This document shows positions 17 to 11,823 of a DNA stretch of 11,823 nt, piece after piece. The DNA lies in the UHGV virus genome UHGV-1844342; one strand, given 5' to 3'. The position numbers were made by a program, and so were the translations under genes. The stretch comes from a virus. Under the pieces are notes generated by a model. That model was not told the DNA's origin, did no database searches, and was given only the letters and a program-made list of their open reading frames with translations. Position 1 is the stretch's first letter; each line of letters begins with the position of its first letter.

Positions 17-490
17 GTGATAACAGGTGTCTGGAAATATAGGGGCAAATCCAGTTGGGTTTGGACTGTACCAAAAGATCACTCAAAAACTGGTGTTGAA
101 ATCGTCAGACCAGTACCTGAAATTCTACGACAGTGGGTAACGGATGTTCACGAAGAGACAAAACATACTGGTTATGTGCTGGGAAGTCTGCGAATTAGAG
201 AAAGCGTAAGCAAGATTGGGGGGAAAATCGGTAAACGTTTGGGCCATGAAAAACAATGGTCACTACACGACCTTAGAAGAACGCTATCTACTCATCTAAG
301 TGATCTCGGTGTTGAATTTTATGTAGTAGAACAACTGTTAGGCCATGCGCTACCTGGCGTGGCAGGTGTTTACAACCGGAGTAAGTTTATGGCTAAAAAA
401 CTGGATGCTCTGGAACTCTGGACTACATATCTCAATAGCATCGCAGGTGCTGATTCAAAAGTGACAATCCTCAAACAAAAGGTTGGTTAA
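17..490 (+). pseudogene. int: Tyrosine integrase (P4/CP4-57 type), C-terminal catalytic fragment only; 5'-truncated or frameshifted
   Basis: Translation has SKTG (conserved Lys region), HDLRRT (His-x-x-Arg), LLGH and GVYNRS (catalytic Tyr) motifs of tyrosine recombinases. In-frame TAA at 14-16 and stops in all three forward frames within the first 45 nt, so the N-terminal domain and box I Arg cannot be read through from upstream. Confidence 0.65.
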
Positions 491-491
491 C

Positions 492-719
492 ATGAAAAAA
501 ATGGCAATTGTTGATAAAAAGGGTCTGGAGTACATTCCTAACATTGACCGAATGATCCGTGAGAAAGAATGTCGGGAGCTAACCACTCTTGCGAACAGCA
601 CACGCTGGAAGCTGGAGAAGGAAGGAAAATTTCCTAAGCGGATCAAGATTGGTTCCACTGCTGTTGCATATCGTCTTTCAGAAGTGCAGGCATGGATTCG
701 AGGTGAGTGGGTAGTTTAA
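492..719 (+). CDS. alpA: AlpA/Vis-family prophage transcriptional regulator (winged HTH)
   Basis: 75-aa product; ...ELTTLANSTRWKLEKEGKFPKRIKIGSTAVAYRLSEVQAWI... fits the AlpA/Vis HTH pattern; sits directly after int as in Gram-negative PICIs; ATG 492 with AAGG 9 nt upstream (track start 483 is a TTG). Confidence 0.8.
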   Translation: MKKMAIVDKKGLEYIPNIDRMIREKECRELTTLANSTRWKLEKEGKFPKRIKIGSTAVAYRLSEVQAWIRGEWVV

Positions 720-744
720 ATTATCTCAGAATAAAATATTATGA

Positions 745-780
745 ATTACTGATTTGAGAATTTGTACTCAAATCAGTAAT
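745..780. terminator. Perfect 14-bp inverted repeat (ATTACTGATTTGAG / CTCAAATCAGTAAT) with 8-nt loop; candidate bidirectional intrinsic terminator between alpA and the convergent minus-strand cargo gene
   Basis: Arms 745-758 and 767-780 are exact reverse complements; AT-rich flanks on both sides; lies between convergent stop codons (719 and 789). Confidence 0.55.
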
Positions 781-788
781 AACATTCT

Positions 789-1325
789 TTATAAGAGATT
801 AAATCCAAATAAAGAGTAATCATATACCGGGGTGCATTGCATTCCACTGAATATGCTGATGTTTTTTTCTGTTTCTATCCTTTTTTCAATAAGTTGTTGT
901 ATATTTTTACAGTACAATTTGTGTGTGATGTTATTATCGTAAGCCTGATATAGCAACGTCAATGTTGACGCTAGGAAACATACAGATAAAATTAAAGTAA
1001 CATATGCGGTTTTTTTATTTTTTGTCCATGATCTATTTGTTTGTGAAATATAAAGAATTCTGATGTGGATAATGGTGAGAGACAATAGCAGGCCACTCAA
1101 TAAAATAAGTATTGGGTTTGCGTATTTTATTAATGGTTGAGAGCAAAAAACTATTATAGCTCCTGTGACTGCGTATGAGAAAAAGGAGTAATTAAACTTC
1201 TTACTCCTTCTCTCAAGTATTTTAATTTCATCTTGTGTGGGGGTTTTAGATGCCTCTAATATAAGTTTATTGAATGTTTCTGTTATCTTGTTTTTTGTGT
1301 TTGTGGCTATTTTTTTTAGATTCAT
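789..1325 (-). CDS. Hypothetical small membrane protein (about 3 predicted TM segments) in an AT-rich cargo island
   Basis: 178-aa ORF on the minus strand; GGAG about 12 nt upstream of ATG; hydrophobic stretches FFSYAVTGAIIVFCSQPLI, PILILLSGLLLSLTIIHIRILYI, AYVTLILSVCFLASTLTLLY; local GC far below the rest of the island. Confidence 0.55.
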   Translation of the reverse strand: MNLKKIATNTKNKITETFNKLILEASKTPTQDEIKILERRSKKFNYSFFSYAVTGAIIVFCSQPLIKYANPILILLSGLLLSLTIIHIRILYISQTNRSWTKNKKTAYVTLILSVCFLASTLTLLYQAYDNNITHKLYCKNIQQLIEKRIETEKNISIFSGMQCTPVYDYSLFGFNLL

Positions 1326-1639
1326 AGCATTCTAACTCCCTTAACTTATTTATTACTTTCTCTTTATGATAAGAGAGGGGAATGACTTGGTAAAGTGATT
1401 TGTCATTAATAATGATAATCCTTGCGATAAATATTTCTGCAAGTTATTTATCTGTTTGTTGCTATCTTGTTAAGCGTTGGGTGTGGTTTATGTTTGGAGC
1501 GACTTTATTTAATCGTGATTTTATGGATTTATATTTATATCCTGTAAGATAAGCGCATGTTAGTTCAGGAGTAGTGTCAGATAAAATTATTCGGAGTAGA
1601 ACTACCTTTTCTGTTTATTGCCAGTATTTACATAGCAAT

Positions 1640-1666
1640 GCGCCGTAGTTACTCACATCACGGCGC
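1640..1666 (-). terminator. Weak candidate hairpin (GCGCCGT ... ACGGCGC, 7-bp stem, 13-nt loop) just downstream of the minus-strand regulator gene
   Basis: Inverted repeat 1640-1646 / 1660-1666, 10 nt past the stop of the 1676-1978 gene; no clean U-tract. Confidence 0.25.
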
Positions 1667-1675
1667 TGATACTAA

Positions 1676-1978
1676 TTATTCAGATTCTTTGGCTTTACGC
1701 CGCTGGAGTTCTTCACGAGCGACGGCTACGAGTTGCCCGATTTCCTCCGCTGCCTTGATGCCGATTTGTTCGACCTTAGCTAAGGCATCCAGTGAAGACA
1801 CGAGGGGATTTTCTCCGCTTCCTTCTGCCTGGCGGCGGGCGATCTCACCGCGCATGGCGGTTACTATGAATCCGGCGTTGCTCTCGCCGTCCAGTTTTAC
1901 GGATTCCATGCCCTCCATAACATCGTGGGGAACCCTGATCGTTGTCATTTGCGATTTTGCATTTTTGTATACAGACAT
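1676..1978 (-). CDS. Putative ribbon-helix-helix (Arc/CopG-like) DNA-binding protein; candidate master repressor of the island, divergent from the early operon
   Basis: 100-aa ORF; N-terminal MTTIRVPHDVMEGMESV...NAGFIVTAMRGEIARRQ resembles a beta-strand/helix/helix RHH fold; divergently arranged relative to the operon starting at 2187 with an operator-repeat array in between. Confidence 0.45.
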   Translation of the reverse strand: MSVYKNAKSQMTTIRVPHDVMEGMESVKLDGESNAGFIVTAMRGEIARRQAEGSGENPLVSSLDALAKVEQIGIKAAEEIGQLVAVAREELQRRKAKESE

Positions 1979-1989
1979 AGTTAATCACC

Positions 1990-2110
1990 AATTTGTTATG
2001 TGTATATCACTATACACAAAAGTGATATATAAAAACACTTGCAATGTATATCACCACAATATAATGTATATCTCACATTATGGTCGCTATGTATCTCACA
2101 ATGATCGATT
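1990..2110. promoter_or_regulatory. Divergent promoter/operator region: four direct copies of TGTAT(A)TC(T)CAC(A) at 2001, 2045, 2065, 2090, one inverted copy (GTGATATA, 2022-2029), and a consensus -10 TATAAT (2060-2065) with TTGCAA (2039-2044) 15 bp upstream
   Basis: Repeats read directly from sequence; the -10 hexamer overlaps the repeats, consistent with a repressed early promoter. Confidence 0.6.
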
Positions 2111-2186
2111 CATAAAAACGACGAAACCCGGCAGTGCGCGAACACTAACCGGGCTTCTAACCAAACCGTTAAACGAGGTAACGATT

Positions 2187-2552
2187 ATGGCTGGAACACA
2201 GCATACCCAAACTCACCCTAAATTTATATACACCTTTCTGGCACTACACCACGACCGCATGGCAGATGGAGCAACTACGGTACATGTAGCCGCTGACACG
2301 CTGGTTGATGCCCGCAAGATGGTTAAGGAGATGGGCTATACTGCGGCTTTCTGGAAAGGGCGTGAAGAAAACACGCTGTTTATTCAGAAATGCGAAAACA
2401 ATTTCATCTGGCGTTTTATCGCCCTGAGTACGGCACAACCGCGCGTGATTCACATCGTGGCCACCAGCGAACAGGAAGCCCGCCAGCAATCCCCGGCTGG
2501 TTGCGTGAGGGTATTCGCCGCCCGTATTCGTCAGGAGGTATGCCGTGCTTAA
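2187..2552 (+). CDS. Hypothetical protein, first gene of the early operon
   Basis: ATG 2187 with GAGG 8 nt upstream; 121 aa; the track ORF 1638-2552 is the same frame, but its upstream part overlaps the operator region and the minus-strand regulator gene. Confidence 0.55.
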   Translation: MAGTQHTQTHPKFIYTFLALHHDRMADGATTVHVAADTLVDARKMVKEMGYTAAFWKGREENTLFIQKCENNFIWRFIALSTAQPRVIHIVATSEQEARQQSPAGCVRVFAARIRQEVCRA

Positions 2553-2730
2553 AACCTTCCGTGTATTTGCCCGAGCGGTTAACCCACGAGGCCACACAAT
2601 TGGTATCACTCAGAACGTGAAGGCTGTTAATGTTCAGACGGCTATTGCTGTGGTGAGAAGCGAATCATCAGAATATGGCTTATCACAAGTCATTATTTCA
2701 GCAGTGTATGAATTAAAAGAGGTGCATTAA
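2545..2730 (+). CDS. Hypothetical small protein (61 aa)
   Basis: GTG start 2545 with strong AGGAGG 6 nt upstream; overlaps the previous stop and the next start (TAATG at 2727-2732), i.e. translational coupling. Confidence 0.5.
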   Translation: MLKTFRVFARAVNPRGHTIGITQNVKAVNVQTAIAVVRSESSEYGLSQVIISAVYELKEVH

Positions 2731-2921
2731 TGCAGGAAATTACATTACACGAAGCCGCTGAACGTGCGCACCAGACAGAAATTATTTGCCGCCTTCTTGA
2801 GGTATACCCGAACAAAATTACAGATGCTGATATATCCGCACTGGCGAGCCTACTGGCGCGTCTTTCGGGAAGTGTCGCTAGTTTTTTGATTGAGGAAGAA
2901 AGTAAGCTGGTGGGGGATTAA
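2730..2921 (+). CDS. Hypothetical small protein (63 aa)
   Basis: ATG with AAGAGG upstream; stop followed immediately by the next start (TAAATG). Confidence 0.5.
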   Translation: MQEITLHEAAERAHQTEIICRLLEVYPNKITDADISALASLLARLSGSVASFLIEEESKLVGD

Positions 2922-3143
2922 ATGAATACAGAACGGGAAGTCTTTTTTAAATTGTTAGCATGTGCAGAAAGTTCATTAACTTTAAATAATTCAGCAAAAG
3001 CAATATTAAATATGTGGCTTGATTGCATAAATGACAATGAAGATGCAAATATTGCTTATGGCCTGTTGTCACTTATTGATGAAGCAGCAGAAAAACTCAA
3101 TGACGCAATAAATAGTGCCCTGTTATCAAATAAGTCGAGTTAA
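2922..3143 (+). CDS. Hypothetical small protein (73 aa), AT-rich moron-like gene inside the early operon
   Basis: ORF with GGGGGA upstream; base composition clearly lower in GC than flanking genes. Confidence 0.45.
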   Translation: MNTEREVFFKLLACAESSLTLNNSAKAILNMWLDCINDNEDANIAYGLLSLIDEAAEKLNDAINSALLSNKSS

Positions 3144-3160
3144 GTCGAGGAATAAATAAT

Positions 3161-3460
3161 ATGGAAATGAAAAATTCTGGCTTTATTGCCAGCGGCCCCG
3201 CTCGGCCTGAATTTATGAACGGCGATATTTACCGCGATAAATACGGCGGCACGGTAACGATTAAAGGCGTGGCAGAACGGCGCATCACTTACCGCCGTGA
3301 GGGGTATAGCTATGACTGCGTGATGCCTGTTTATCAGTTCCGGCGTGATTTTTCCCTGGTATATGCCGCACCTCGCAGTAAGCCCACCAGCAGGGAAAAA
3401 GCGCGGGGAAACATCCAGAAAATGAAAAGCATGATTAACGCATTCAGGGGCAAAAAATGA
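3161..3460 (+). CDS. Hypothetical protein (99 aa), translationally coupled to the replication gene
   Basis: GAGGAA upstream of ATG; stop overlaps the start of the downstream gene (ATGA at 3457-3460). Confidence 0.55.
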   Translation: MEMKNSGFIASGPARPEFMNGDIYRDKYGGTVTIKGVAERRITYRREGYSYDCVMPVYQFRRDFSLVYAAPRSKPTSREKARGNIQKMKSMINAFRGKK

Positions 3461-5208
3461 AACTGGCACCGAACTTAAAAAAACAGCCACGCGACAGACT
3501 GACAGAGGTAATCATCTTTGCAGGTAGTGATGCGTGGAGCCATGCGAAAGAGTGGCAGGAATGGGCGGGTAAACATATTGCCGCCGACGATGTGCCGCCT
3601 GTCGTGCTGGCTGATGAGCAACTGAAAAACATCATCGATTACCGGATCATTGATGAAGATCGTCAGTGTGTGCGTGTTTACCGCGCAGGACATATCACAG
3701 AGCACAGCATGACGCAGATTGTTACGTTACTGGCTGTGGCTGGAGTGAAGACCGTACACGAATACGCGGGGATTACTGACACCAGCCCCGTGGATTTATC
3801 CGACCAGTTGCCGCGACTCAAAGAGGAATGCGAGCGTGGGGAAAGTCTGGTGCTTAATCTTCCGACGAAGCAAAAGGCGCAACTTTCACAGATGGCAGAC
3901 AGTGAACGTGCACAACTACTTGCCGATCGCTTTGATGGTGTGTGTGTTCATGCAGAAAGTGAAATCGTCCACGTATGGCGCGGCGGGGTATGGTGTCCGG
4001 TCAGCACAATGGAGCTGAGCCGCGAAATGGTGGCGATCTATTCAGAGCACAGGGCCACGTTCAGCAAACGTGTAATCAATAACGCCGTGGAAGCGTTAAA
4101 AGTTATTGCCGACCCCATGGGGGAGCCGTCCGGTGATTTACTACCGTTCACTAATGGTGTGCTTAACCTGAAAACGGGGGATTTTTCTCCGCACTTACCG
4201 GAGCACTGGAGCACCACGCACAATGGCATTGAGTACACGCCACCAGTAGCAGGGGAAAACATCCGCGATAATGCGCCAAATTTCCATAAATGGCTTGAAC
4301 ATGCTGCAGGAAAAGACCCGCGCAAGATGATGCGTATATGTGCCGCGTTATACATGATTATGGCGAACCGCTACGACTGGCAGATGTTCATTGAGGCCAC
4401 CGGAGACGGGGGAAGCGGTAAGAGTACATTTACCCATATTGCCACCCTGCTTGCTGGCAAACAGAACACCGTAAGCGCAGAGATGACATCACTCGATGAT
4501 GCAGGAGGGCGCGCGCAGGTTGTCGGGAGTCGTCTTATCGTCCTTGCCGATCAGCTGAAATATACGGGGGAAGGCACGGGCATCAAGAAAATCACGGGAG
4601 GCGATCCCGTTGAAATTAACCCGAAATATGAGAAGCGATTCACGACGATAATAAGGGCGGTGGTACTGGCAACCAATAACGACCCGATGATCTTTACCGA
4701 ACGGGCCGGAGGTGTGTCACGCCGTCGGGTGATTTTCCGGTTCGACAACATTGTAAGGGAGGACGAAAAAGACAAGGAATTACCGGAAAAGATAGCGGCA
4801 GAAATCCCCGTAATTATCCGCCGCTTGCTGGCTAATTTTGCTGACCCTGAAAAGGCACGGGCTTTATTACTGGAACAGCGTGACGGTGATGAAGCTCTGG
4901 CAATAAAGCAGCAAACGGATCCGGTTGTTGAGCTTTGCGCGGCGCTGGAGTTTCTGGAGGAAGCTCGTGGGCTAATGATGGGCGGTGGTGGTGACACCGT
5001 GAAGTACACGACCAGAAACAGCCTTTACCGTGTCTATATGGCCTTCATGGCATATACAGGAAAGGGGAAATGTTTGAGCGTGAATGAGTTCGGAAAGGCT
5101 ATGAGGTCAGCGGCGAAAGTTTACGGATATGAATATATTACGCGAAAAGTTAAGGGAGTCACGCAGACCAACGCAACGACTACTGATGATTGCGATGCGT
5201 TTTTATAA
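3457..5208 (+). CDS. Replication protein: SF3 helicase with primase-associated N-terminal region (P4 alpha C-terminal / D5-like family; PICI pri-rep analogue)
   Basis: 583 aa; Walker A EATGDGGSGKST (about nt 4395-4430), Walker B-like RLIVLADQ (about 4531-4554), motif C-like VLATNND; iteron origin immediately downstream. Confidence 0.85.
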   Translation: MKLAPNLKKQPRDRLTEVIIFAGSDAWSHAKEWQEWAGKHIAADDVPPVVLADEQLKNIIDYRIIDEDRQCVRVYRAGHITEHSMTQIVTLLAVAGVKTVHEYAGITDTSPVDLSDQLPRLKEECERGESLVLNLPTKQKAQLSQMADSERAQLLADRFDGVCVHAESEIVHVWRGGVWCPVSTMELSREMVAIYSEHRATFSKRVINNAVEALKVIADPMGEPSGDLLPFTNGVLNLKTGDFSPHLPEHWSTTHNGIEYTPPVAGENIRDNAPNFHKWLEHAAGKDPRKMMRICAALYMIMANRYDWQMFIEATGDGGSGKSTFTHIATLLAGKQNTVSAEMTSLDDAGGRAQVVGSRLIVLADQLKYTGEGTGIKKITGGDPVEINPKYEKRFTTIIRAVVLATNNDPMIFTERAGGVSRRRVIFRFDNIVREDEKDKELPEKIAAEIPVIIRRLLANFADPEKARALLLEQRDGDEALAIKQQTDPVVELCAALEFLEEARGLMMGGGGDTVKYTTRNSLYRVYMAFMAYTGKGKCLSVNEFGKAMRSAAKVYGYEYITRKVKGVTQTNATTTDDCDAFL

Positions 5209-5220
5209 AAAATGGCAATG

Positions 5221-5455
5221 GTTATCTACCTTGTCTACCTGACTGAAATAAAATACTTTTATTTCAATGTATTAATGCAGGTAGATAACTATTTTTCACT
5301 GTCTACCTGTTATCTACCTTATCTACCCATTTTTGTAGACAGGTAAGGAGACGGGTAGAGATGAGGTAGACAGCTATTTGGGGCTGTCTACCTCCCTGAA
5401 ACCCGCGCCATTACTGGCCTGATAACTAATCAGGTAGACAAGGTAGACAAGGTGG
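5221..5455. repeat. Iteron-type replication origin: about 12 copies of GGTAGAC(A)/GTCTACC (with GGTAGATA variants) in both orientations flanking an AT-rich spacer (5241-5278)
   Basis: Copies at about 5223, 5233, 5280, 5301, 5312, 5321, 5335, 5353, 5365, 5385, 5433, 5442; tandem pair GGTAGACAAGGTAGACAAGG at 5433-5451; directly 3' of the helicase gene as in PICI/P4 ori. Confidence 0.8.
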
Positions 5456-5497
5456 TGGTGCACAAAAAACTTTTTAAACGAGGGGGTAAAAATAAAA

Positions 5498-5740
5498 ATG
5501 CACACATCAGGAAAACTGAACAAACATATAAAGCCACATTACCGCGCCCTTGATATGGCTGAACACTGGCTAAGGGTGGCGATTAAGGCAATAGACCGCA
5601 ACGCCGGGGAAGGATACGCGAAAGCACATCCCGAACTGATAAGCGCATTCATGACAACGGCGGCTGCAAACTTTGCCACGCTGACCGAACGGGAGATTGC
5701 CGAAGCGGAGGAAGTGACAACCATCAATATTAAGTCCTGA
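5498..5740 (+). CDS. Hypothetical protein (80 aa)
   Basis: ATG with GAGGGGG upstream; no overlapping conflict. Confidence 0.5.
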   Translation: MHTSGKLNKHIKPHYRALDMAEHWLRVAIKAIDRNAGEGYAKAHPELISAFMTTAAANFATLTEREIAEAEEVTTINIKS

Positions 5741-5751
5741 GAGCAGGCAGC

Positions 5752-6201
5752 ATGACGGCGCAAATAGCAGCTTACGGGCGGCTGGTGGACGACCCACAGG
5801 TAAAACATACCAGCAAGGGAACACCCATGACACTGGCACGGATGGCGGTATCTTTGCCATGCAGCCAGGCAGATGACGGAACGGCGACGATGTGGTTATC
5901 TGTGCTGGCGTTTGGCAGACAAGCCGACGCGCTGGCAAAGCATCACAAAGGCGAACTCCTGAGCGTGGCGGGTAATATGCAGGTGAGCCAGTGGAGCGGA
6001 CAGAACGGGGAAACGCGGCAGGGCTGGCAGGTTATCGCAGACAGCGTAATCAGTGCCAGAACGGTGCGACCGGGCGGCAAAAAAGGTCAACAGGGGCAGG
6101 CTACTGATGCACTGAACAGAGCAAAACAACAGGCAGATCAGCAAGGAAGCCATCCACCAGTGGGAGATAATGAGCAATGGGGAGATGATATTCCGTTTTA
6201 A
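5752..6201 (+). CDS. ssb: Single-stranded DNA-binding protein
   Basis: 149 aa; OB-fold-like N-terminal region, Gly/Gln-rich linker, and canonical acidic C-terminal tail ...GDDIPF. Confidence 0.8.
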   Translation: MTAQIAAYGRLVDDPQVKHTSKGTPMTLARMAVSLPCSQADDGTATMWLSVLAFGRQADALAKHHKGELLSVAGNMQVSQWSGQNGETRQGWQVIADSVISARTVRPGGKKGQQGQATDALNRAKQQADQQGSHPPVGDNEQWGDDIPF

Positions 6202-6219
6202 ATATTGCCAATAAAAAAG

Positions 6220-6243
6220 GCCGGAAAAAATATATTTTCCGGC
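6220..6243. terminator. Hairpin GCCGGAAAA / TTTTCCGGC (9-bp stem, 6-nt loop) between the replication and morphogenesis modules
   Basis: Exact inverted repeat 6220-6228 / 6235-6243; an A-run precedes it on + (so a T-run follows it on the minus strand); function as a module boundary is inferred. Confidence 0.35.
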
Positions 6244-6411
6244 ATGCTACATAAATCCCGACCAAAGGGAGTGAAGATATTAACACTAATTATCCGCGCT
6301 GAAGTTGTCATCCCAAAACTTTATACAACATTGCACTCGGTTGCATGTGTTAGCATGACAAATATCGGTGATAGCATATATCCACAATTATTTTTAATGA
6401 ATGTAAAGAGG

Positions 6412-7458
6412 ATGAGTATGGTTGATTTATATTCGCCTGCCCAGCTTGTGCAGGTGGCTAATGCAGAAGAGGTGCAAAAAAAATTAAATGCATTGTTTAC
6501 CAGTTTGTTTTTCACTCGCTCGGTAATGTTTGAATCAAGAGACATTATTCTTGATACAATCGACGATCCAAATATCCCAATTGCAGCGTTTTGTTCTCCT
6601 ATGGTGGGTAGTAAAGTTTCACGTGACGAAGGGTACGAATCAAAGACAATTCGTCCAGGCTATATGAAGCCGAAAAGCAGCATTGATCCAAATAAGTTAG
6701 CTGTGCGCCCTGCTGGTGTATCACCTGAGCAATACAATGCTTTTGGAGCGCGTAATATTAAAGTTAAACAGGCGATTGTAAATCAGGCTAAAGCTATTCG
6801 TGCACGTATTGAATGGCTTGCCGTTCAGGCAATCACAACGGGGAAAAATATCATTGAGGGCGATGGCATTGAACGCTATGAACTGGACTGGAATATAAAA
6901 CCACAAAATATTATCACGCAGTCCGGCGGTGCTGAGTGGTCAGGTAAGGATAAAGAAACTTTTGATCCAAATGATGATATTGAGAGCTACGCAGAATTTA
7001 GTGAGGGCGTCACTAATATCATCATTATGGGCGGTAATGTATGGAAGAAATACCGTTCATTCAGAGCGATAAAAGAGGCTCTGGATACCCGTCGTGGTTC
7101 TAATTCCGAACTGGAAACGGCCCTTAAAGACCTTGGTGATTCGGTGAGTTTTAAAGGGTATATGGGCGATGTTGCGATTGTTGTATACAGCGGGCGTTAT
7201 ACCGACGAGGACGGAACTGAAAAACATTTCCTTGATCCTGATTTGATGGTGCTTGGCAATACGGCTCTTCAGGGGATTGTCGCCTATGGCGGTATTCAGG
7301 ATCCGGAGCTAATCCGAATGGGGCTGACTAAAGCCGAACTTGCACCGAAAAACTATATTGTGCCTGGTGATCCGGCTATTGAATATGTGCAGACACATTC
7401 AGCACCACAGCCAATACCGGCCCGCATCAATCGTTTTGTTACCGTTCGCATTGGCTAA
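6412..7458 (+). CDS. Major capsid protein, divergent homolog of lambda gpE (HK97 fold)
   Basis: ATG 6412 preceded by AAGAGG; C-terminal about 200 aa align with the lambda E fragment present in this same window (shared blocks ITQSGG.EWS..DK.T.DP.DDIE.YA, DTRRGS.SELETA.KDLG, GDVAIVVYSG, MVLGNT), roughly 55-60 percent identity there by eye; N-terminal third far more divergent. Confidence 0.85.
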   Translation: MSMVDLYSPAQLVQVANAEEVQKKLNALFTSLFFTRSVMFESRDIILDTIDDPNIPIAAFCSPMVGSKVSRDEGYESKTIRPGYMKPKSSIDPNKLAVRPAGVSPEQYNAFGARNIKVKQAIVNQAKAIRARIEWLAVQAITTGKNIIEGDGIERYELDWNIKPQNIITQSGGAEWSGKDKETFDPNDDIESYAEFSEGVTNIIIMGGNVWKKYRSFRAIKEALDTRRGSNSELETALKDLGDSVSFKGYMGDVAIVVYSGRYTDEDGTEKHFLDPDLMVLGNTALQGIVAYGGIQDPELIRMGLTKAELAPKNYIVPGDPAIEYVQTHSAPQPIPARINRFVTVRIG

Positions 7459-7467
7459 GGGGGAGCA

Positions 7468-7809
7468 ATGGCTACTCATTACACTGAACTCATGGCTGGC
7501 ACTGAAGCACTGGTGACTACGCTGGGGATATTTTCAGCTAATAAAGGGGTAATTCCTGCATTTACGCCACTGATGCAGGAAGATGCAACAGGTGCACTGG
7601 TGGTATGGGATGGTTCGAGCGTAGGTAAAGCGGTTTATGTTTCCGCTGTACAAATCGACACCGCGAAAAAAACACAGGCTCAGGTCTATAAGACAGGTGT
7701 CTTAAATGTTGATGCTCTGAACTGGCCTGAGTCTGTAAAAGAACTGTCAGTAAAGATTGCAGCGTTTGTTGGCTCAGGTATTTCTGTTCAGCCGCTGGCT
7801 CGTGTGTAA
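7468..7809 (+). CDS. Head decoration protein, lambda gpD-like
   Basis: 113 aa; AAGGGGGAG RBS; blocks TPLMQEDATGALVVWDG, VYKTGVLNVDALNWPES and FVGSGISVQ resemble lambda gpD (TPLM..VAWDG, FYKSGTFRYEDVLWPEA, FAGTAISIV) as recalled. Confidence 0.7.
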   Translation: MATHYTELMAGTEALVTTLGIFSANKGVIPAFTPLMQEDATGALVVWDGSSVGKAVYVSAVQIDTAKKTQAQVYKTGVLNVDALNWPESVKELSVKIAAFVGSGISVQPLARV

Positions 7810-7820
7810 AGGGGGATACA

Positions 7821-8204
7821 ATGCAGAATCATTACAATGACCTTAAGCCAATTGCCGAAATGATGTATCCGGATCCAGCAGTAGAGGAATTAAAGGCTAT
7901 TGCTGACAAAATGCGTTTAAGCGAGCGTCTTGTTGATATGAATCAGGTGATGGAACTTACAACCCTGAGTCGTCGTACACTGCTAAACCTTGAAGCACGT
8001 GGAGAGTTCCCCGAACGCGTGCAGGTTACGGAAGGGCGTAAGGCCTGGTATTTAAGCGAAGTGATCGACTGGATAAACAATATTCCGCGCGCTTCTGAAT
8101 ATTGCCGCGTACCTGTCCCAAAAAAGCCAGATGCGGCGCTATGCCTCAAGATTGAGCGTGTACGCCGCAATGCGCGGGATGGTCGCTATAAGCTGATTGG
8201 TTGA
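7821..8204 (+). CDS. Second AlpA-family HTH protein with about 40-aa N-terminal extension; candidate late/packaging regulator
   Basis: 127 aa; AAGGGGGA RBS; core ELTTLSRRTLLNLEARGEFPERVQVTEGRKAWYLSEVIDWI matches the AlpA/Vis winged-HTH pattern. Confidence 0.7.
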   Translation: MQNHYNDLKPIAEMMYPDPAVEELKAIADKMRLSERLVDMNQVMELTTLSRRTLLNLEARGEFPERVQVTEGRKAWYLSEVIDWINNIPRASEYCRVPVPKKPDAALCLKIERVRRNARDGRYKLIG

Positions 8205-8219
8205 TGAAATTAGGGCCCG

Positions 8220-8300
8220 TTCTGGCTGGCGGGTCCTTTCCGGCGATCCAGAACGTTACGGGGCGGCGACCTCGCGGGTTTTCGCTATTTATGAGCATTT
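8220..8300 (+). other. cos: Lambda-type cos site: cosQ-like segment, cosN 12-nt cohesive-end sequence GGGCGGCGACCT (8261-8272), and proximal cosB segment
   Basis: 8223-8294 reads TGGCTGGCGGGTCCTTTCCGG.GATCC....GTTACG GGGCGGCGACCT CGCGGGTTTTCGCTATTTATGA, matching the joined right-end/left-end sequence of phage lambda as recalled; a Nu1-like gene follows as in lambda. Confidence 0.85.
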
Positions 8301-8405
8301 TTAGGGGACTGGTGGTGGTTTTGTTGTTCGCTATATCTGTATGAATAATAAGAGAAAAACACAATCAACACACCAACCTGAAACAGTAATTAAGTTGTGG
8401 TATCA

Positions 8406-8948
8406 ATGAAATTGCACCTGATGAACAAAAAAAACATGGCAAAAAGTTGCCGTGTAAGCGCCACTGCGTTCGATAAGTGGGGAGTGATTCCCGTCGAGCG
8501 TAAGGGCCGCGAGGCGTTTTATGATGTCGCCAGTGTAATAGATAATCGGGTTAACAATGCAATCAGCCAGATTACAAACGAAACGGGCGAGATTGATGAT
8601 GATGAACTCCTACGAGTCAGGATCAGATTGCTGACAGCACAGGCAGAGGCGCAGGAGCTTAAAAACGAGCGCGAACGCGGCGACGTTATTGATACAGCGT
8701 TTTGTATATACGTGCTTTCAAAACTGGCGAGTCAGATTTCTTCAATCATGGACAGCCTGCCGCTTGCCATGACAAGGAAGTTTCCCGACATGAAGCCGTC
8801 TATGCTGGATGGACTGAAAAAAGAAGTTATCAGAGCCTGTAACGCATGCGCAAAACTTGACGAAAACATACCGCTGATGCTGTCCGATTATCTGATGGAA
8901 ACTGCCGGAAACGTACCGGATAAGTTGCAGCTGAATAAAGATAAGTAA
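8406..8948 (+). CDS. Terminase small subunit, lambda Nu1-like (winged HTH N-terminus plus gpA-interaction C-terminus)
   Basis: C-terminal two-thirds aligns with recalled lambda Nu1 (LTAQAEAQELKNER...DTAFCIYVLSKLASQISSIMDSLPLAMTRKFPDM...KLDENIPLMLSDYL vs LTRAQADAQELKNARD...ETAFCTFVLSRIAGEIASILDGLPLSVQRRFPEL...ALDELIPGLLSEYI); N-terminus more divergent; start 8406 by analogy with lambda (8421 is an alternative; track start 8397 is GTG). Confidence 0.8.
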   Translation: MKLHLMNKKNMAKSCRVSATAFDKWGVIPVERKGREAFYDVASVIDNRVNNAISQITNETGEIDDDELLRVRIRLLTAQAEAQELKNERERGDVIDTAFCIYVLSKLASQISSIMDSLPLAMTRKFPDMKPSMLDGLKKEVIRACNACAKLDENIPLMLSDYLMETAGNVPDKLQLNKDK

Positions 8949-8959
8949 CGTAGTACGCT

Positions 8960-9241
8960 ATGACTGAATCCGAAATACTGCGATTAATCCGCCGTGCTTG
9001 TGGAATCAGCAAGCAGCATGACGAACAGGCCACGCAGCCGGACAGCGTGATCGCCGAAAATTACGCGCGTGTTGTTGCTGATGTGATGCGCCGTGATGGT
9101 ATTGAGCTTAACGGCGTGGATATGCGCGACATACGGATCAGATTCCTTGAGTTGCTGGCATACCGTCGCCGTTCTCAACAACGAAGGGAGAGCGCGAAAA
9201 ACACTTATCAGTGGAAGAAGCCGGAACGGTTGCGGCGGTAG
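8960..9241 (+). CDS. Hypothetical basic protein (93 aa) in the position occupied by the large terminase gene in lambda
   Basis: ORF directly downstream of the Nu1-like gene (12-nt gap); Arg-rich C-terminus; no obvious SD; no similarity to lambda gpA N-terminus that I can see. Confidence 0.45.
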   Translation: MTESEILRLIRRACGISKQHDEQATQPDSVIAENYARVVADVMRRDGIELNGVDMRDIRIRFLELLAYRRRSQQRRESAKNTYQWKKPERLRR

Positions 9242-9983
9242 ATTCCTGATATTCAGGAAAACCACGAATCCGGGGGTTTTACTGGCGCGGTGTACACGGT
9301 GGAACGTATAGCGTTACCTGACTTATTGCATTGTAAAAAGTTGAAAGGCACGGCCTGTAAGATGGGATGTTGTGAGTAGTTTAAAGCTACCCGCAAATTC
9401 TTTCGTTGTGCTGGCACAGGCGGTTAAACCGTCGGTAACTGGATAATCCCCACTGGGGGAAAAGCTGGCTACATCCCTCACATCTGAGGACTGATAACGC
9501 AAAATTGCGTTGGCTGGCAGAGTGCAAATTTGCACGATGGCCTAACCCATTGATTCTTTCGAAAACCCCCATTGGGGGAGAACGGGGGAATAAACCTGAC
9601 TCATTGATTTTTCCACAATCCTTAATTTGAGGAAGCTGGATAGTTGCACTACCCAAAAAGTGCAGTACCCACATAGCTGCTTAATAGCGTTTATTTTTTC
9701 CGCACACCTCAAATCTGAGAAGGCCGGAATGATGACATGGCAGGATTATGATTCCTTGATTTCAAGGAGTCCTCCAGTGTGAAAATGAAATTATCTGGGC
9801 TGGTGGGTGAGTTGCTGATCTGCAACTCGGCTATGAAACTTAATAATCGAACAGCATGTAAATTCATTTCTGTGTATTGCAGCATGTATTGCAACATAGT
9901 CATTCTGGTAGAGATTATGCTCTATTTTTCCTCTTATATCATTCACATACTTACGTCATTGACTCATGTAGCCGAAGCATGAG

Positions 9984-10760
9984 GTGAATCCGCAGATGAC
10001 CCTGCGTCGCCTGCCGGATGAAGATCCGCAGAATCTGGCGGACCCGGCTTACCGCCGCCGTCGCATCATTATGCAGAACATGCGTGACGAAGAGCTGGCC
10101 ATTGCCCAGGTCGAAGAGATGCAGGCAGTTTCTGCCGTGCTTAAGGGCAAATACACCATGACCGGTGAAGCTTTCGATCCGGTTGAGGTGGATATGGGCC
10201 GCAGTGCGGCCAACAACATCACGCAGTCCGGCGGCACGGAGTGGAGCAAGCGTGACAAGTCCACGTATGACCCGACCGACGATATCGAAGCCTACGCGCT
10301 GAACGCCAGCGGAGTGGTGAATATCATCGTGTTTGATCCGAAAGGCTGGGCGCTGTTCCGTTCCTTCAAAGCCGTCAAGGAGAAGCTGGATACTCGTCGC
10401 GGCTCTCATTCCGAGCTGGAGACAGCGGTGAAAGACCTGGGCAAAGCGGTGTCCTACAAGGGGATGTATGGCGATGTGGCCATCGTCGTGTATTCCGGAC
10501 AGTACGTGGAAAACGGCGTCAAAAAGAACTTCCTGCCGGACAACACGATGGTGCTGGGGAACACTCAGGCACGCGGTCTGCGCACCTATGGCTGCATTCA
10601 GGATGCGGACGCACAGCGCGAAGGCATTAACGCCTCTGCCCGTTACCCGAAAAACTGGGTGACCACCGGCGATCCGGCGCGTGAGTTCACCATGATTCAG
10701 TCAGCACCGCTGATGCTGCTGGCTGATCCTGATGAGTTCGTGTCTGTACAACTGGCGTAA
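9984..10760 (+). pseudogene. E: Major capsid protein gpE, 5'-truncated fragment (C-terminal about 258 codons), near-identical to lambda E
   Basis: Translation NPQMTLRRLPDEDPQNLADPAYRRRRIIMQNMRDEELAIAQ...EFVSVQLA matches lambda gpE from about residue 85 to the end as recalled; in-frame TAG at 9969-9971 and non-lambda AT-rich sequence upstream; the track start is a GTG that is internal in lambda. Confidence 0.85.
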
Positions 10761-10801
10761 TCATGGCCCTTCGGGGCCATTTTCTCTCTGTGGAGGAGTT
10801 C

Positions 10802-11200
10802 ATGACGAAAGATGAACTGATTGCCCGTCTTCAGGAGCTGGGTGAGCAACTGAACCGCGATGTCAGTTTGACGGGAACGAAAGAAGAACTGGCGCTTCGT
10901 GTGGCAGAGCTGGAAGAAGAGCTTGATGACACGGATGAAACTGCCGGTCAGGACACCCCTCTCAGCCGGGAAAATGTGCTGACCGGGCATGAAAATGAGG
11001 TGGTATCAGCGCAGCCGGATACCGTGATTCAGGATACGGCTGAACTGGTCACGGTTGTGGCACTGGTGACGCTGCATACTGATGCACTTCACGCCACGCG
11101 GGATGAACCTGTGGCATTTGTGCTGCCGGGAACGGCGTTCCGTGTCTCTGCCGGTGTGGCAGCTGAAATGACAGAGCGCGGCCTGGCCAGAATGCAATAA
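10802..11200 (+). CDS. FI: DNA-packaging protein FI, lambda-like
   Basis: MTKDELIARL...LTGTKEELALRVAELEEELDDTDETAGQDTPLSRENVLTGHENEV...AEMTERGLARMQ matches lambda gpFI as recalled; GGAGGAG RBS before ATG 10802 (the track start 10763 is an upstream extension). Confidence 0.9.
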   Translation: MTKDELIARLQELGEQLNRDVSLTGTKEELALRVAELEEELDDTDETAGQDTPLSRENVLTGHENEVVSAQPDTVIQDTAELVTVVALVTLHTDALHATRDEPVAFVLPGTAFRVSAGVAAEMTERGLARMQ

Positions 11201-11211
11201 CGGGAGGCGCT

Positions 11212-11823
11212 GTGGCTGATTTCGATAACCTGTTCGATGCTGCCATTGCCCGCGCCGATGAAACGATACGCGGGTACATGGGAACGTCAGCCACCATGAC
11301 ATCCGGTGAGCAGTCCGGTGCTGTGATACGTGGTGTTTTTGATGACCCTGAAAATATCAGCTATGCCGGACAGGGCGTGCGCGTTGAAGGCTCCAGCCCG
11401 TCCCTGTTTGTCCGGACTGATGATGTGCGGCAGCTGCGGCGCGGCGACACGCTGACTTCCATTGCCCGGCAATTCGGCACGACGGTCACGAGCATTGTCG
11501 CAATCAATGATCTAAAAAATGAATCTGATCGCAATGAGCAGGACGGCATCAGGTATATGCTTATGGGCTTCTTTCAAGGGCCTCGCAATTTGTACCAACA
11601 CAATCACATTGGCTCCGGTGTAAGCAATTCTATTTCCGTAATCATTGAAGCATCTTTCTTCCTCCATCTACTTGATGGGCACAGCATTACTCAAAACGGA
11701 CGCTGGATTCCGGCCAAAGCAGATTATCACGAGATTTATCAAAAGATGCCCAAGCATATTGATCGTTGGAAGCTTGTACGCCTACTAAAGAAGCGTGATC
11801 GTAGGTTGAAGAAAGATCAATGA
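11212..11823 (+). CDS. FII: FII-like head-tail joining protein: first about 82 codons lambda FII-like, then an unrelated lower-GC C-terminal extension (chimeric or disrupted gene)
   Basis: GTG start with GGGAGG RBS; MADFDNLFDAAIARADETIRGYMGTSAT...VRQLRRGDTLT matches lambda gpFII as recalled, then diverges at about nt 11458 (lambda continues IGEENFWV...); the frame nevertheless stays open for about 120 more codons to the TGA at the window end. Confidence 0.6.
   Translation: MADFDNLFDAAIARADETIRGYMGTSATMTSGEQSGAVIRGVFDDPENISYAGQGVRVEGSSPSLFVRTDDVRQLRRGDTLTSIARQFGTTVTSIVAINDLKNESDRNEQDGIRYMLMGFFQGPRNLYQHNHIGSGVSNSISVIIEASFFLHLLDGHSITQNGRWIPAKADYHEIYQKMPKHIDRWKLVRLLKKRDRRLKKDQ

Follow-up and report, generated by a model that had tools for sequence, protein, structure and literature searches.

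The UHGV virus genome UHGV-1844342, a stretch of 11,823 nucleotides whose full length we call the window, carries a low-GC cassette of about 920 bp (712-1633, GC 0.30) between the gene alpA and a divergent pair of small genes. The only substantial open reading frame (ORF) in this cassette is a minus-strand gene, ORF178 (789-1325, ATG start), which encodes a predicted inner-membrane protein of 178 amino acids. The surrounding element is a helper-embedded phage-inducible chromosomal island (HE-PICI) of the published 11capE type, with the site E:Phage_cap_E_80, as described in the parts covered here of Tommasini, Mageeney & Williams (2023, PMC10111431). While the element type is already known, ORF178 represents a new, uncharacterised gene family and is a reasonable candidate for a single-gene membrane defence.

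A cargo slot next to alpA

The cassette is set apart from its surroundings by composition and by homology. Direct computation gives a GC content of 0.300 for 712-1633 and 0.485 for the remaining window, and the sliding GC profile stays at 0.29-0.33 across 751-1650 and at 0.40-0.58 outside. In blastn comparisons with sister satellites, the left homology breakpoint lies at 710-716, in the final bases of alpA, and the right one at 1631-1637, about 40 bp beyond the YlcI stop codon, in sister elements with a YlcI homologue; in those lacking the YlcI gene, homology returns only at 2134-2397. Because these breakpoints fall where they do, we place the cassette at about 712-1633, an extent that takes in a hairpin near alpA and an upstream region of about 300 bp. 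A sequence-only reading of the window had described a markedly low-GC island of about 900 bp at 720-1640, between alpA and a regulatory module; the composition agrees, the limits nearly coincide with the mapped breakpoints, and the flanks are of the kind proposed. The conserved left flank is alpA itself (483-719, plus strand; Pfam Phage_AlpA, E = 3.1e-15). The conserved right flank is a gene for a YlcI/YnfO-family small protein (1676-1978, minus strand; NCBIfam YlcI_YnfO_N, E = 8.5e-20), which shares the strand of ORF178, lies upstream of it, and forms, with an Icd-like gene, a divergent pair spanning 1676-2552. The YlcI/YnfO-family protein is probably a regulator.

Sister elements that share the integrase and the attachment site hold unrelated cargoes at this one position, between alpA and the Icd-like gene, and the conserved flanks give way to each cargo at sharp homology breakpoints. 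These elements, all embedded in capsid gene E and 95-100% identical across int-alpA, carry a CAP12/Pycsar-type TIR protein (PADLOC PDC-S35, E = 7e-67; locus L020), DUF2971 with SWIM (L018 and L019), or a putAbiC protein at the position and on the strand of ORF178 (L021). Among 5,426 complete Escherichia coli genomes, with at least 80% coverage required, the int-alpA module is present in 176-179 and the ORF178 cassette in 67-68, compared with 37 for the TIR protein, 33 for DUF2971 with SWIM, and 11 for putAbiC, the cargo counts being genome-wide with adjacency to this integrase not confirmed genome by genome. The same int-alpA adjoins the E. coli-type gene in five of five RefSeq loci and in 21 of 21 IMG/VR loci. 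In distant PICIs with a related YlcI/Icd module, the slot contains an AntA/B antirepressor and a small ORF (E148, JNU), two small ORFs (RM9131), or almost nothing (the PICI of Nissle 1917). Because satellites with the same integrase hold TIR, putAbiC, or DUF2971 with SWIM cargo there, the alpA-proximal slot appears, by comparison of these sequences, to behave as a defence hotspot, and the assignment of 712-1633 to an exchangeable cargo slot is supported. The sequence-only reading had suggested a variable cargo slot and had named a conserved, syntenic slot with a housekeeping function as the outcome that would count against it; what we see is turnover of unrelated cargo among sister elements.

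PICIs reportedly encode immunity (Fillol-Salom et al., 2022). The slot described here resembles satellite defence hotspots of both P4 (Rousset et al., 2022, PMC9122126) and PICIs in combining conserved flanks with rapidly exchanged cargo that includes recognised defence domains, but it differs from the P4 hotspot in belonging to another satellite type and in lying between alpA and the YlcI/Icd regulatory pair. In the parts of the HE-PICI paper covered here, the published elements share with the window the order int-alpA, dynamic zone, DUF4222, D5/P4-type primase, SSB (a protein that binds single-stranded DNA), and own capsid and decoration genes, as well as the location in gene E, and the zone following alpA is named the 'Bro zone', a dynamic region of DNA-interactive proteins and immunity RNAs (Tommasini, Mageeney & Williams, 2023). 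Unlike the zone described in those parts, that of the window holds a membrane-protein cassette alternating with TIR, putAbiC, and DUF2971 cargo; within the same parts 'defense' appears once, 'membrane' never, and ORF178 is not mentioned.

Several sequence features accompany ORF178 within the cassette. A 14-nt inverted repeat (arms 745-758 and 767-780, 100% complementary, 8-nt loop) corresponds to the perfect 14-bp hairpin that had been noticed on one side of the island. Its predicted RNA fold reaches -21.2 kcal/mol for the minus strand (z = -5.4; none of 200 shuffles was equally stable) and -19.2 kcal/mol for the plus strand (z = -4.6), it was picked up by a terminator scan, and the segment containing it (720-788) is 98.6-100% identical among the five RefSeq loci compared. 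This hairpin is probably a bidirectional terminator for the convergent alpA (plus strand) and ORF178 (minus strand). On the other side of the gene, in the non-coding upstream part of the cassette (1326-1633, minus strand), a GGGAG ribosome-binding motif lies 10 nt 5' of the ORF178 ATG (plus strand 1336-1340, reading CTCCC). The promoter-like AT-rich region proposed here by the sequence-only reading is the weakest element of that description: a promoter scan predicts a TTTACC-17-TATCAT match at 1394-1366 on the minus strand, but the number of promoter-like sites in the region (10, against 5.9 +/- 2.5 in shuffles) is not significant as a pattern by itself. With its upstream region, its gene, and its probable terminator hairpin, 712-1633 is a self-contained, horizontally acquired single-gene cassette. 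A possible partner gene, a plus-strand ORF of 50 aa at 1400-1552, was set aside, as it starts with TTG, has no ribosome-binding motif, and shows no variation by which to judge it. An Rfam scan found no RNA family inside the cassette. At the right cassette boundary, just 3' of the YlcI/YnfO stop codon, RNA folding identifies a GC-rich hairpin on the minus strand (1640-1666, within a fold of 1615-1680 with a free energy of -20.4 and z of -2.5); it has no U-tract and would therefore be non-canonical as a terminator. A 37-bp stretch that overlaps it (1634-1670) is present twice in locus L005.

The ORF178 protein and its family

The ORF list, hydropathy, and an AlphaFold model agree with the lone minus-strand gene of 178 codons and about three transmembrane (TM) segments that had been read from the sequence. 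Hydropathy shows three hydrophobic segments at about residues 46-64, 71-93, and 107-127, followed by a polar tail of 51 residues, and the AlphaFold model built from 13 family members (predicted local distance difference test, pLDDT, 85.8) contains helices at 3-26, 31-68, 71-94, 100-147, and 152-161 that coincide with these segments. Loop 2 is net positive in all members and contains zero acidic residues, while the tail is neutral or acidic. Applying the positive-inside rule to these charges, we predict a topology with the N-terminus inside, three TM segments, and the C-terminus outside: a cytoplasmic N-terminus (residues 1-45), TM1 (46-64), periplasmic loop 1 (65-70), TM2 (71-94), a basic cytoplasmic loop 2 (95-106), TM3 (107-127), and a periplasmic tail (128-178) bearing the invariant residues C139 and C164. 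This arrangement would place both conserved elements, loop 1 and the tail, in the periplasm, and the cysteine pair in an oxidising compartment.

Family members share a common plan. In the first half, a polar N-terminus is followed by TM1 ending in QP, a loop with LK[FY]ANP, and TM2 ending in YR, the conserved loop-1 motif reading QPLxK[FY]ANP in full; in the second half, a short basic loop and a weakly conserved TM3 precede a tail with HDxYCxxxQ and, further on, EKNSxIFNNMxCR. P71, C139, Q143, F159, and C164 are invariant across the family, and C139 and C164 are its sole invariant cysteines. Conservation, measured as mean pairwise identity, is highest in loop 1 (0.52) and in the tail core (0.41) and lowest in TM3 (0.14) and loop 2 (0.19). 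The geometry of the model allows a C139-C164 disulfide, which is predicted to staple a C-terminal helix-turn-helix. The soluble C-terminal tail of the sequence-only reading is thus seen as a polar segment, now refined to a predicted periplasmic and disulfide-stapled one.

The ORF178 family is very rare, gammaproteobacterial, and uncharacterised. No Pfam, NCBIfam, PADLOC, or PHROG model matches ORF178 above threshold. A word-indexed search of 5.8 billion proteins returned E. coli sequences only, phmmer, run exhaustively against 1.84 billion cluster representatives, gave eight matches (six of them at 29-38% identity), and a profile search raised the family to about 20 clusters, from E. coli, Phytobacter/Kosakonia, Citrobacter, Ewingella, Pantoea, Pseudomonas, and metagenomes. 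Relatives at 17-36% identity keep the architecture and the tail motif. A narrow-alignment scan of 185,579 species genomes recovered three loci only, with a search pattern that misses the E. coli allele (EKNISIFSGM) and so cannot recover E. coli-type genes. With tblastn, ORF178 had zero matches in 50,697 phage records and one marginal match among plasmids, from Pantoea (E = 0.01).

When the window allele is compared with the 91%-identical allele of strain CT282, all 8 changes in codons 1-82 and 119-178 are synonymous and 0 are non-synonymous, and 20 residues differ in codons 83-118. ORF178 is under purifying selection outside its centre. The allele-variable centre, as delimited by allele comparison, covers codons 78-113 (987-1094, minus strand), and within it an A-rich tract (a plus-strand T-run at about 1010-1023) separates two allele classes. 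Over codons 102-113 or so (window 987-1022), the sequences of the two classes look as though they differ by a compensated frameshift: a truncated variant, P0006, which ends in WTKNKKPHMLL followed by a stop, corresponds to the +1 frame of the window allele, where the CT282 allele reads SHVLVHF. Alleles that differ by 9-10% in their coding centres have 99.4-100% identity in the upstream region 1326-1633, and because the non-coding parts of the cassette are this similar, the divergence is confined to the TM2-loop-TM3 centre, which is poorly constrained. About 59 of some 349 database sequences (roughly 17%) are truncated or frameshifted. Several of the truncated variants arise at the A-rich tract, which may be a mutational on/off hotspot. 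In one genome the cassette is interrupted by IS5.

Distant homologues occur both in other satellites and in islands of conflict genes. Homologues with about 35% identity, from Kosakonia/Phytobacter and a metagenomic viral contig, lie in elements of the form int-alpA-X-[homologue, reversed]-...-RepA helicase; these are unrelated PICI-like satellites in which the gene has the zone and the reverse orientation of ORF178. In Pseudomonas mandelii, the homologue is the last gene of an operon, 49 bp 3' of a retron type XI gene that joins a reverse transcriptase (RT) to a trypsin-like protease (PADLOC E = 1e-174); homologue and retron gene have equal GC content (0.387), zero terminators between them, and a strong terminator after the homologue. 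Immediately upstream of this operon and divergent from it is a strong match to C4 antisense RNA (L011 7728-7922, minus strand, 81.7 bits), with an a1b1 target and an isrK-like match, so the P. mandelii retron adjoins a P4-type immunity region. Elsewhere, a homologue lies one gene away from a Hachiman-type helicase in a metagenomic contig, after the type VI secretion system (T6SS) genes tssF-tssG-tssJ and before an HNH gene in Pantoea, about 3.5 kb from a pyocin S gene in Pseudomonas sp. R3-56, about 1 kb from Imm42 and near an integrase fragment in another metagenomic contig, and alone among housekeeping genes in Ewingella. In all 10 loci measured, the GC content of the homologue is below that of its locus, by 4 to 23 points. 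A constant partner was never seen, and the family gene is a lone gene in all loci examined. The ORF178 family thus recurs in other PICI-like satellites and in defence and conflict islands.

Proposed superinfection exclusion and alternative functions

A periplasm-facing membrane protein without a partner, encoded on the strand of a resident element's regulator, follows the pattern of superinfection exclusion, and for this reason we tentatively read ORF178, at somewhat less than even chances, as an exclusion protein that would act at the inner membrane when a phage genome enters. ORF178 would sit in the inner membrane with its conserved loop and stapled C-terminal tail facing the periplasm, and would there block the entry of incoming phage genomes, in a mode akin to that of P22 SieA or HK97 gp15 while unrelated to them in sequence. 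The protection would cover the lysogen and hence both the satellite and the helper prophage in which it is embedded. We infer expression in the resident state and an anti-phage function. A periplasmic functional face is suggested because the loop charges, the conservation of loop 1 and the tail, and the two invariant cysteines all fit it, and exclusion is favoured over a cytoplasmic trigger because the tail is predicted to be periplasmic and disulfide-stapled. Among the points that may support exclusion we count the hotspot slot, a real gene under constraint, recurrence in satellites, the retron type XI, C4 RNA, and Hachiman neighbours, and a P22-like gene layout. A narrower proposal is more doubtful, namely that ORF178 is the founding member of a new family of inner-membrane exclusion proteins that act alone, in which a small disulfide-stapled periplasmic domain would intercept siphophage DNA entry, for example at the tape-measure protein or an inner-membrane receptor. 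A variant in which ORF178 is a protease-activatable membrane effector, hinted at by the P. mandelii retron type XI operon, is less likely.

The likeness to P22 concerns plan and layout. SieA, a protein found in the inner membrane, has 162-164 aa and three predicted TM segments and prevents DNA from being delivered, and for its conserved motif FxRYPxEAxxFNK a cytoplasmic position is predicted (Leavitt et al., 2024, PMC10883804). Like SieA, ORF178 (178 aa) is of similar size, is the product of a single gene that stands alone everywhere, and has three predicted hydrophobic helices; the membrane location of ORF178 is a prediction. In P22 (L058 2337-3771), sieA lies downstream of orf59a and 3' of the small repressor gene mnt, divergent from arc-ant, has its own promoter, and occupies the strand opposite the structural genes; similarly, ORF178 is downstream of the YlcI/YnfO gene and divergent from the Icd-like operon. 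Related PICIs hold the AntA/B antirepressor noted above in the slot. Unlike SieA, however, ORF178 has a different TM spacing and conserved motifs predicted to be periplasmic, and the two share no detectable homology: the SieA motif is absent from the family alignment, and hhalign of the family profile against P22 SieA gives a probability of 0.7%. The sequence-only reading had proposed profile comparison and topology prediction as checks; the latter gave three hydrophobic helices, while the former led to no known family. The corresponding hhalign probabilities are 0.1-1.0% for lambda SieB, lambda RexB, HK97 gp15, and the putAbiC protein of L021. In Pfam, NCBIfam, PADLOC, and PHROGs, scans of ORF178 and 13 family members yielded nothing beyond hydrophobic noise below threshold. 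Unlike catalogued defence systems, ORF178 has zero PADLOC matches at E <= 10, a profile search of PDB sequences found nothing, and fold searches returned generic helical hairpins only, with no informative match.

Several points weigh against exclusion. Library, profile, and fold searches found zero sequence or fold similarity to known superinfection exclusion or abortive infection (Abi) proteins, both the topology and the disulfide are predictions, and the argument from the hotspot location is one of guilt by association. Some homologues lie beside T6SS genes, a pyocin S locus, Imm42, or housekeeping genes. The proportion of frameshifted database sequences implies that the gene is dispensable and perhaps costly, and a segment of 30% GC in E. 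coli could be silenced by H-NS.

The frequent frameshifted alleles could reflect toxicity, which would speak for an Abi membrane effector, a protein lying inert in the membrane until infection and then, by itself or together with a partner, depolarising the cell or making it permeable. We consider this unlikely. It draws on the putAbiC membrane protein (PF16872) found in L021 at the same position and strand, downstream of the YlcI/YnfO gene, and on the P. mandelii homologue, with its proximity to the RT-protease gene, matching GC content, and other signs of a shared operon. The putAbiC likeness is one of position, however: the hhalign probability is 0.1% and Pfam finds a putAbiC match in 0 of 13 family members. 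The retron pairing is not general, since four further type XI RT-protease loci (89, 81, 69, and 46% identity) have no family member downstream, and the E. coli cassette has no partner gene. Because of these four loci, the most suitable reading of the P. mandelii adjacency is that the genes share a defence island, or at most that the homologue is a rare add-on. The conserved face of ORF178 is predicted to be periplasmic and TM3 is its least conserved part, the opposite of what a pore-lining or cytoplasm-sensing protein would lead one to expect. Two specific identities of this kind were set aside. As a SLATT/DUF4231 effector, ORF178 would rest on matches far below cut-offs in one of 13 members (DUF4231, E = 0.069; SLATT_5, E = 0.17). 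As a retron type XI accessory gene, it would be expected beyond the one RT-protease locus in five that has a family member; PADLOC treats type XI as a single-gene system, and RT is absent from the window.

The presence of homologues near toxin-related genes raises a further alternative, an orphan immunity protein that would shield the inner membrane or the periplasm from a toxin of the bacteriocin, T6SS, or contact-dependent inhibition kind and not from phages. A small inner-membrane protein that crosses the membrane several times and has a conserved periplasmic face fits the colicin or ColM-type immunity class, the family gene is always alone, and homologues follow tssF-tssG-tssJ in Pantoea and lie within a few kilobases of pyocin S in Pseudomonas sp. 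R3-56 and of Imm42 in a metagenomic contig. Yet a toxin gene is adjacent to the family gene in 0 of about 12 contexts, the 13 members have zero matches to colicin, bacteriocin, or other immunity Pfam families at E <= 1, and in E. coli the gene occurs solely in a satellite slot that otherwise takes cargoes of anti-phage type. We regard an immunity function as quite unlikely.

Little weight falls to a role outside conflict, in the life cycle of the satellite or helper or in lysogenic conversion of the envelope (helper lysis timing, envelope stress, or the host surface). All 26 of the 26 E. coli-type loci examined are linked to the capE-site int-alpA module, and the position of ORF178 on the regulator's strand means that it may be expressed in the resident state. 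But sister elements sharing the integrase and attachment site lack the gene and carry unrelated cargo instead, homologues also occur outside satellites, and ORF178 is oriented opposite to all replication and late genes. Finally, that ORF178 is a decaying or non-functional ORF in AT-rich junk DNA, as the frameshifted and truncated variants, the IS5-interrupted copy, and the lack of database family matches might suggest, is highly improbable and largely refuted by the conservation of its invariant residues across genera down to 17-36% identity, the 0 non-synonymous against 8 synonymous changes in its N- and C-terminal parts, and an AlphaFold model that is confident when homologues are supplied.

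If ORF178 does exclude phages, an uncatalogued single-gene membrane defence would join the few that act at genome entry, with a small conserved periplasmic domain that would be easy to dissect. The zone following alpA in Gram-negative PICIs would then be a defence hotspot, in contrast to the regulatory 'Bro' description in the parts of the HE-PICI paper covered here, and helper-embedded satellites would carry protection that benefits the helper as well, one gene shielding host, helper, and satellite. The slot bounded by alpA and YlcI/Icd could be mined for more candidates. If a phenotype is absent, ORF178 would be another orphan membrane gene in a mobile element.

The satellite and its junctions

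The window consists of E. coli DNA, and from 53 to 11456 it matches strain FDAARGOS_1296 with 100% identity, except for an IS66 insertion in that strain. The element spans 53-9958 and begins with the 3' end of the integrase gene, alpA, ORF178, and the YlcI/YnfO-family gene divergent from the Icd-like gene, continuing with DUF4222, the D5/P4-type primase, SSB, its own major capsid and decoration genes, a helix-turn-helix gene, and the small terminase gene. In every complete locus fetched, the satellite is inserted within the lambda-like major capsid gene of a lambdoid prophage; in the window, the C-terminal part of capsid gene E picks up at 9984-10760 and is followed by FI and FII.

Both ends of the window depart from this arrangement. 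Positions 1-52 are the end of a multicopy IS3-family element, present in 3,097 of the 5,426 E. coli genomes at up to 39 copies per genome, which we take to be IS2. It cuts the satellite integrase at nucleotide 799 of 1,236, and with its integrase so truncated, this copy of the satellite probably cannot excise alone. At the other end, homology to all five compared prophages stops at 11456, within the FII-like head-tail joining gene, beyond which the FII-like frame runs into unrelated lower-GC sequence with a LysM-like stretch (GDTLTSIARQFGTTVTSIVAINDL) to the end of the window. This part, 11457-11823, is a second junction or insertion.

The region between the divergent YlcI/YnfO and Icd-like genes contains short direct repeats at 2001-2072 (TGTATATCAC twice and AATGTATATC twice) and a small palindrome at 1996-2021, which together look like operators for a small regulator. 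Rfam gives a sub-threshold match to the SymR antitoxin RNA at 2120-2192 on the minus strand (35.3 bits, where the gathering score is 61; E = 0.0011). This match runs antisense to the Icd-like gene at its ribosome-binding site and start and, on the strand that it shares with the YlcI/YnfO gene, lies upstream of that gene; the same scan found no C4 or isrK immunity RNA in the window.

Just 5' of the satellite small terminase gene, a 73-bp stretch (8229-8301) is 93% identical to the region 5' of nohD, the helper prophage's own small terminase gene (L001 6630-6702), and may be a copied cos or packaging signal. From there to the right, att-proximal end of the satellites lies a second variable slot (window 8302-9957; L006 19549-21522, L007 19739-20881, L016 20045-20803, and L017 19569-21285). 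In the window it contains the small terminase gene and a 93-aa ORF, together with some 700 bp in which no ORF is convincing; sister elements fill it with DUF262 (NsnA/PD-T4-2_A-like), in some cases accompanied by a HEPN protein, or with a TIR protein or DUF2971 (PDC-S31).

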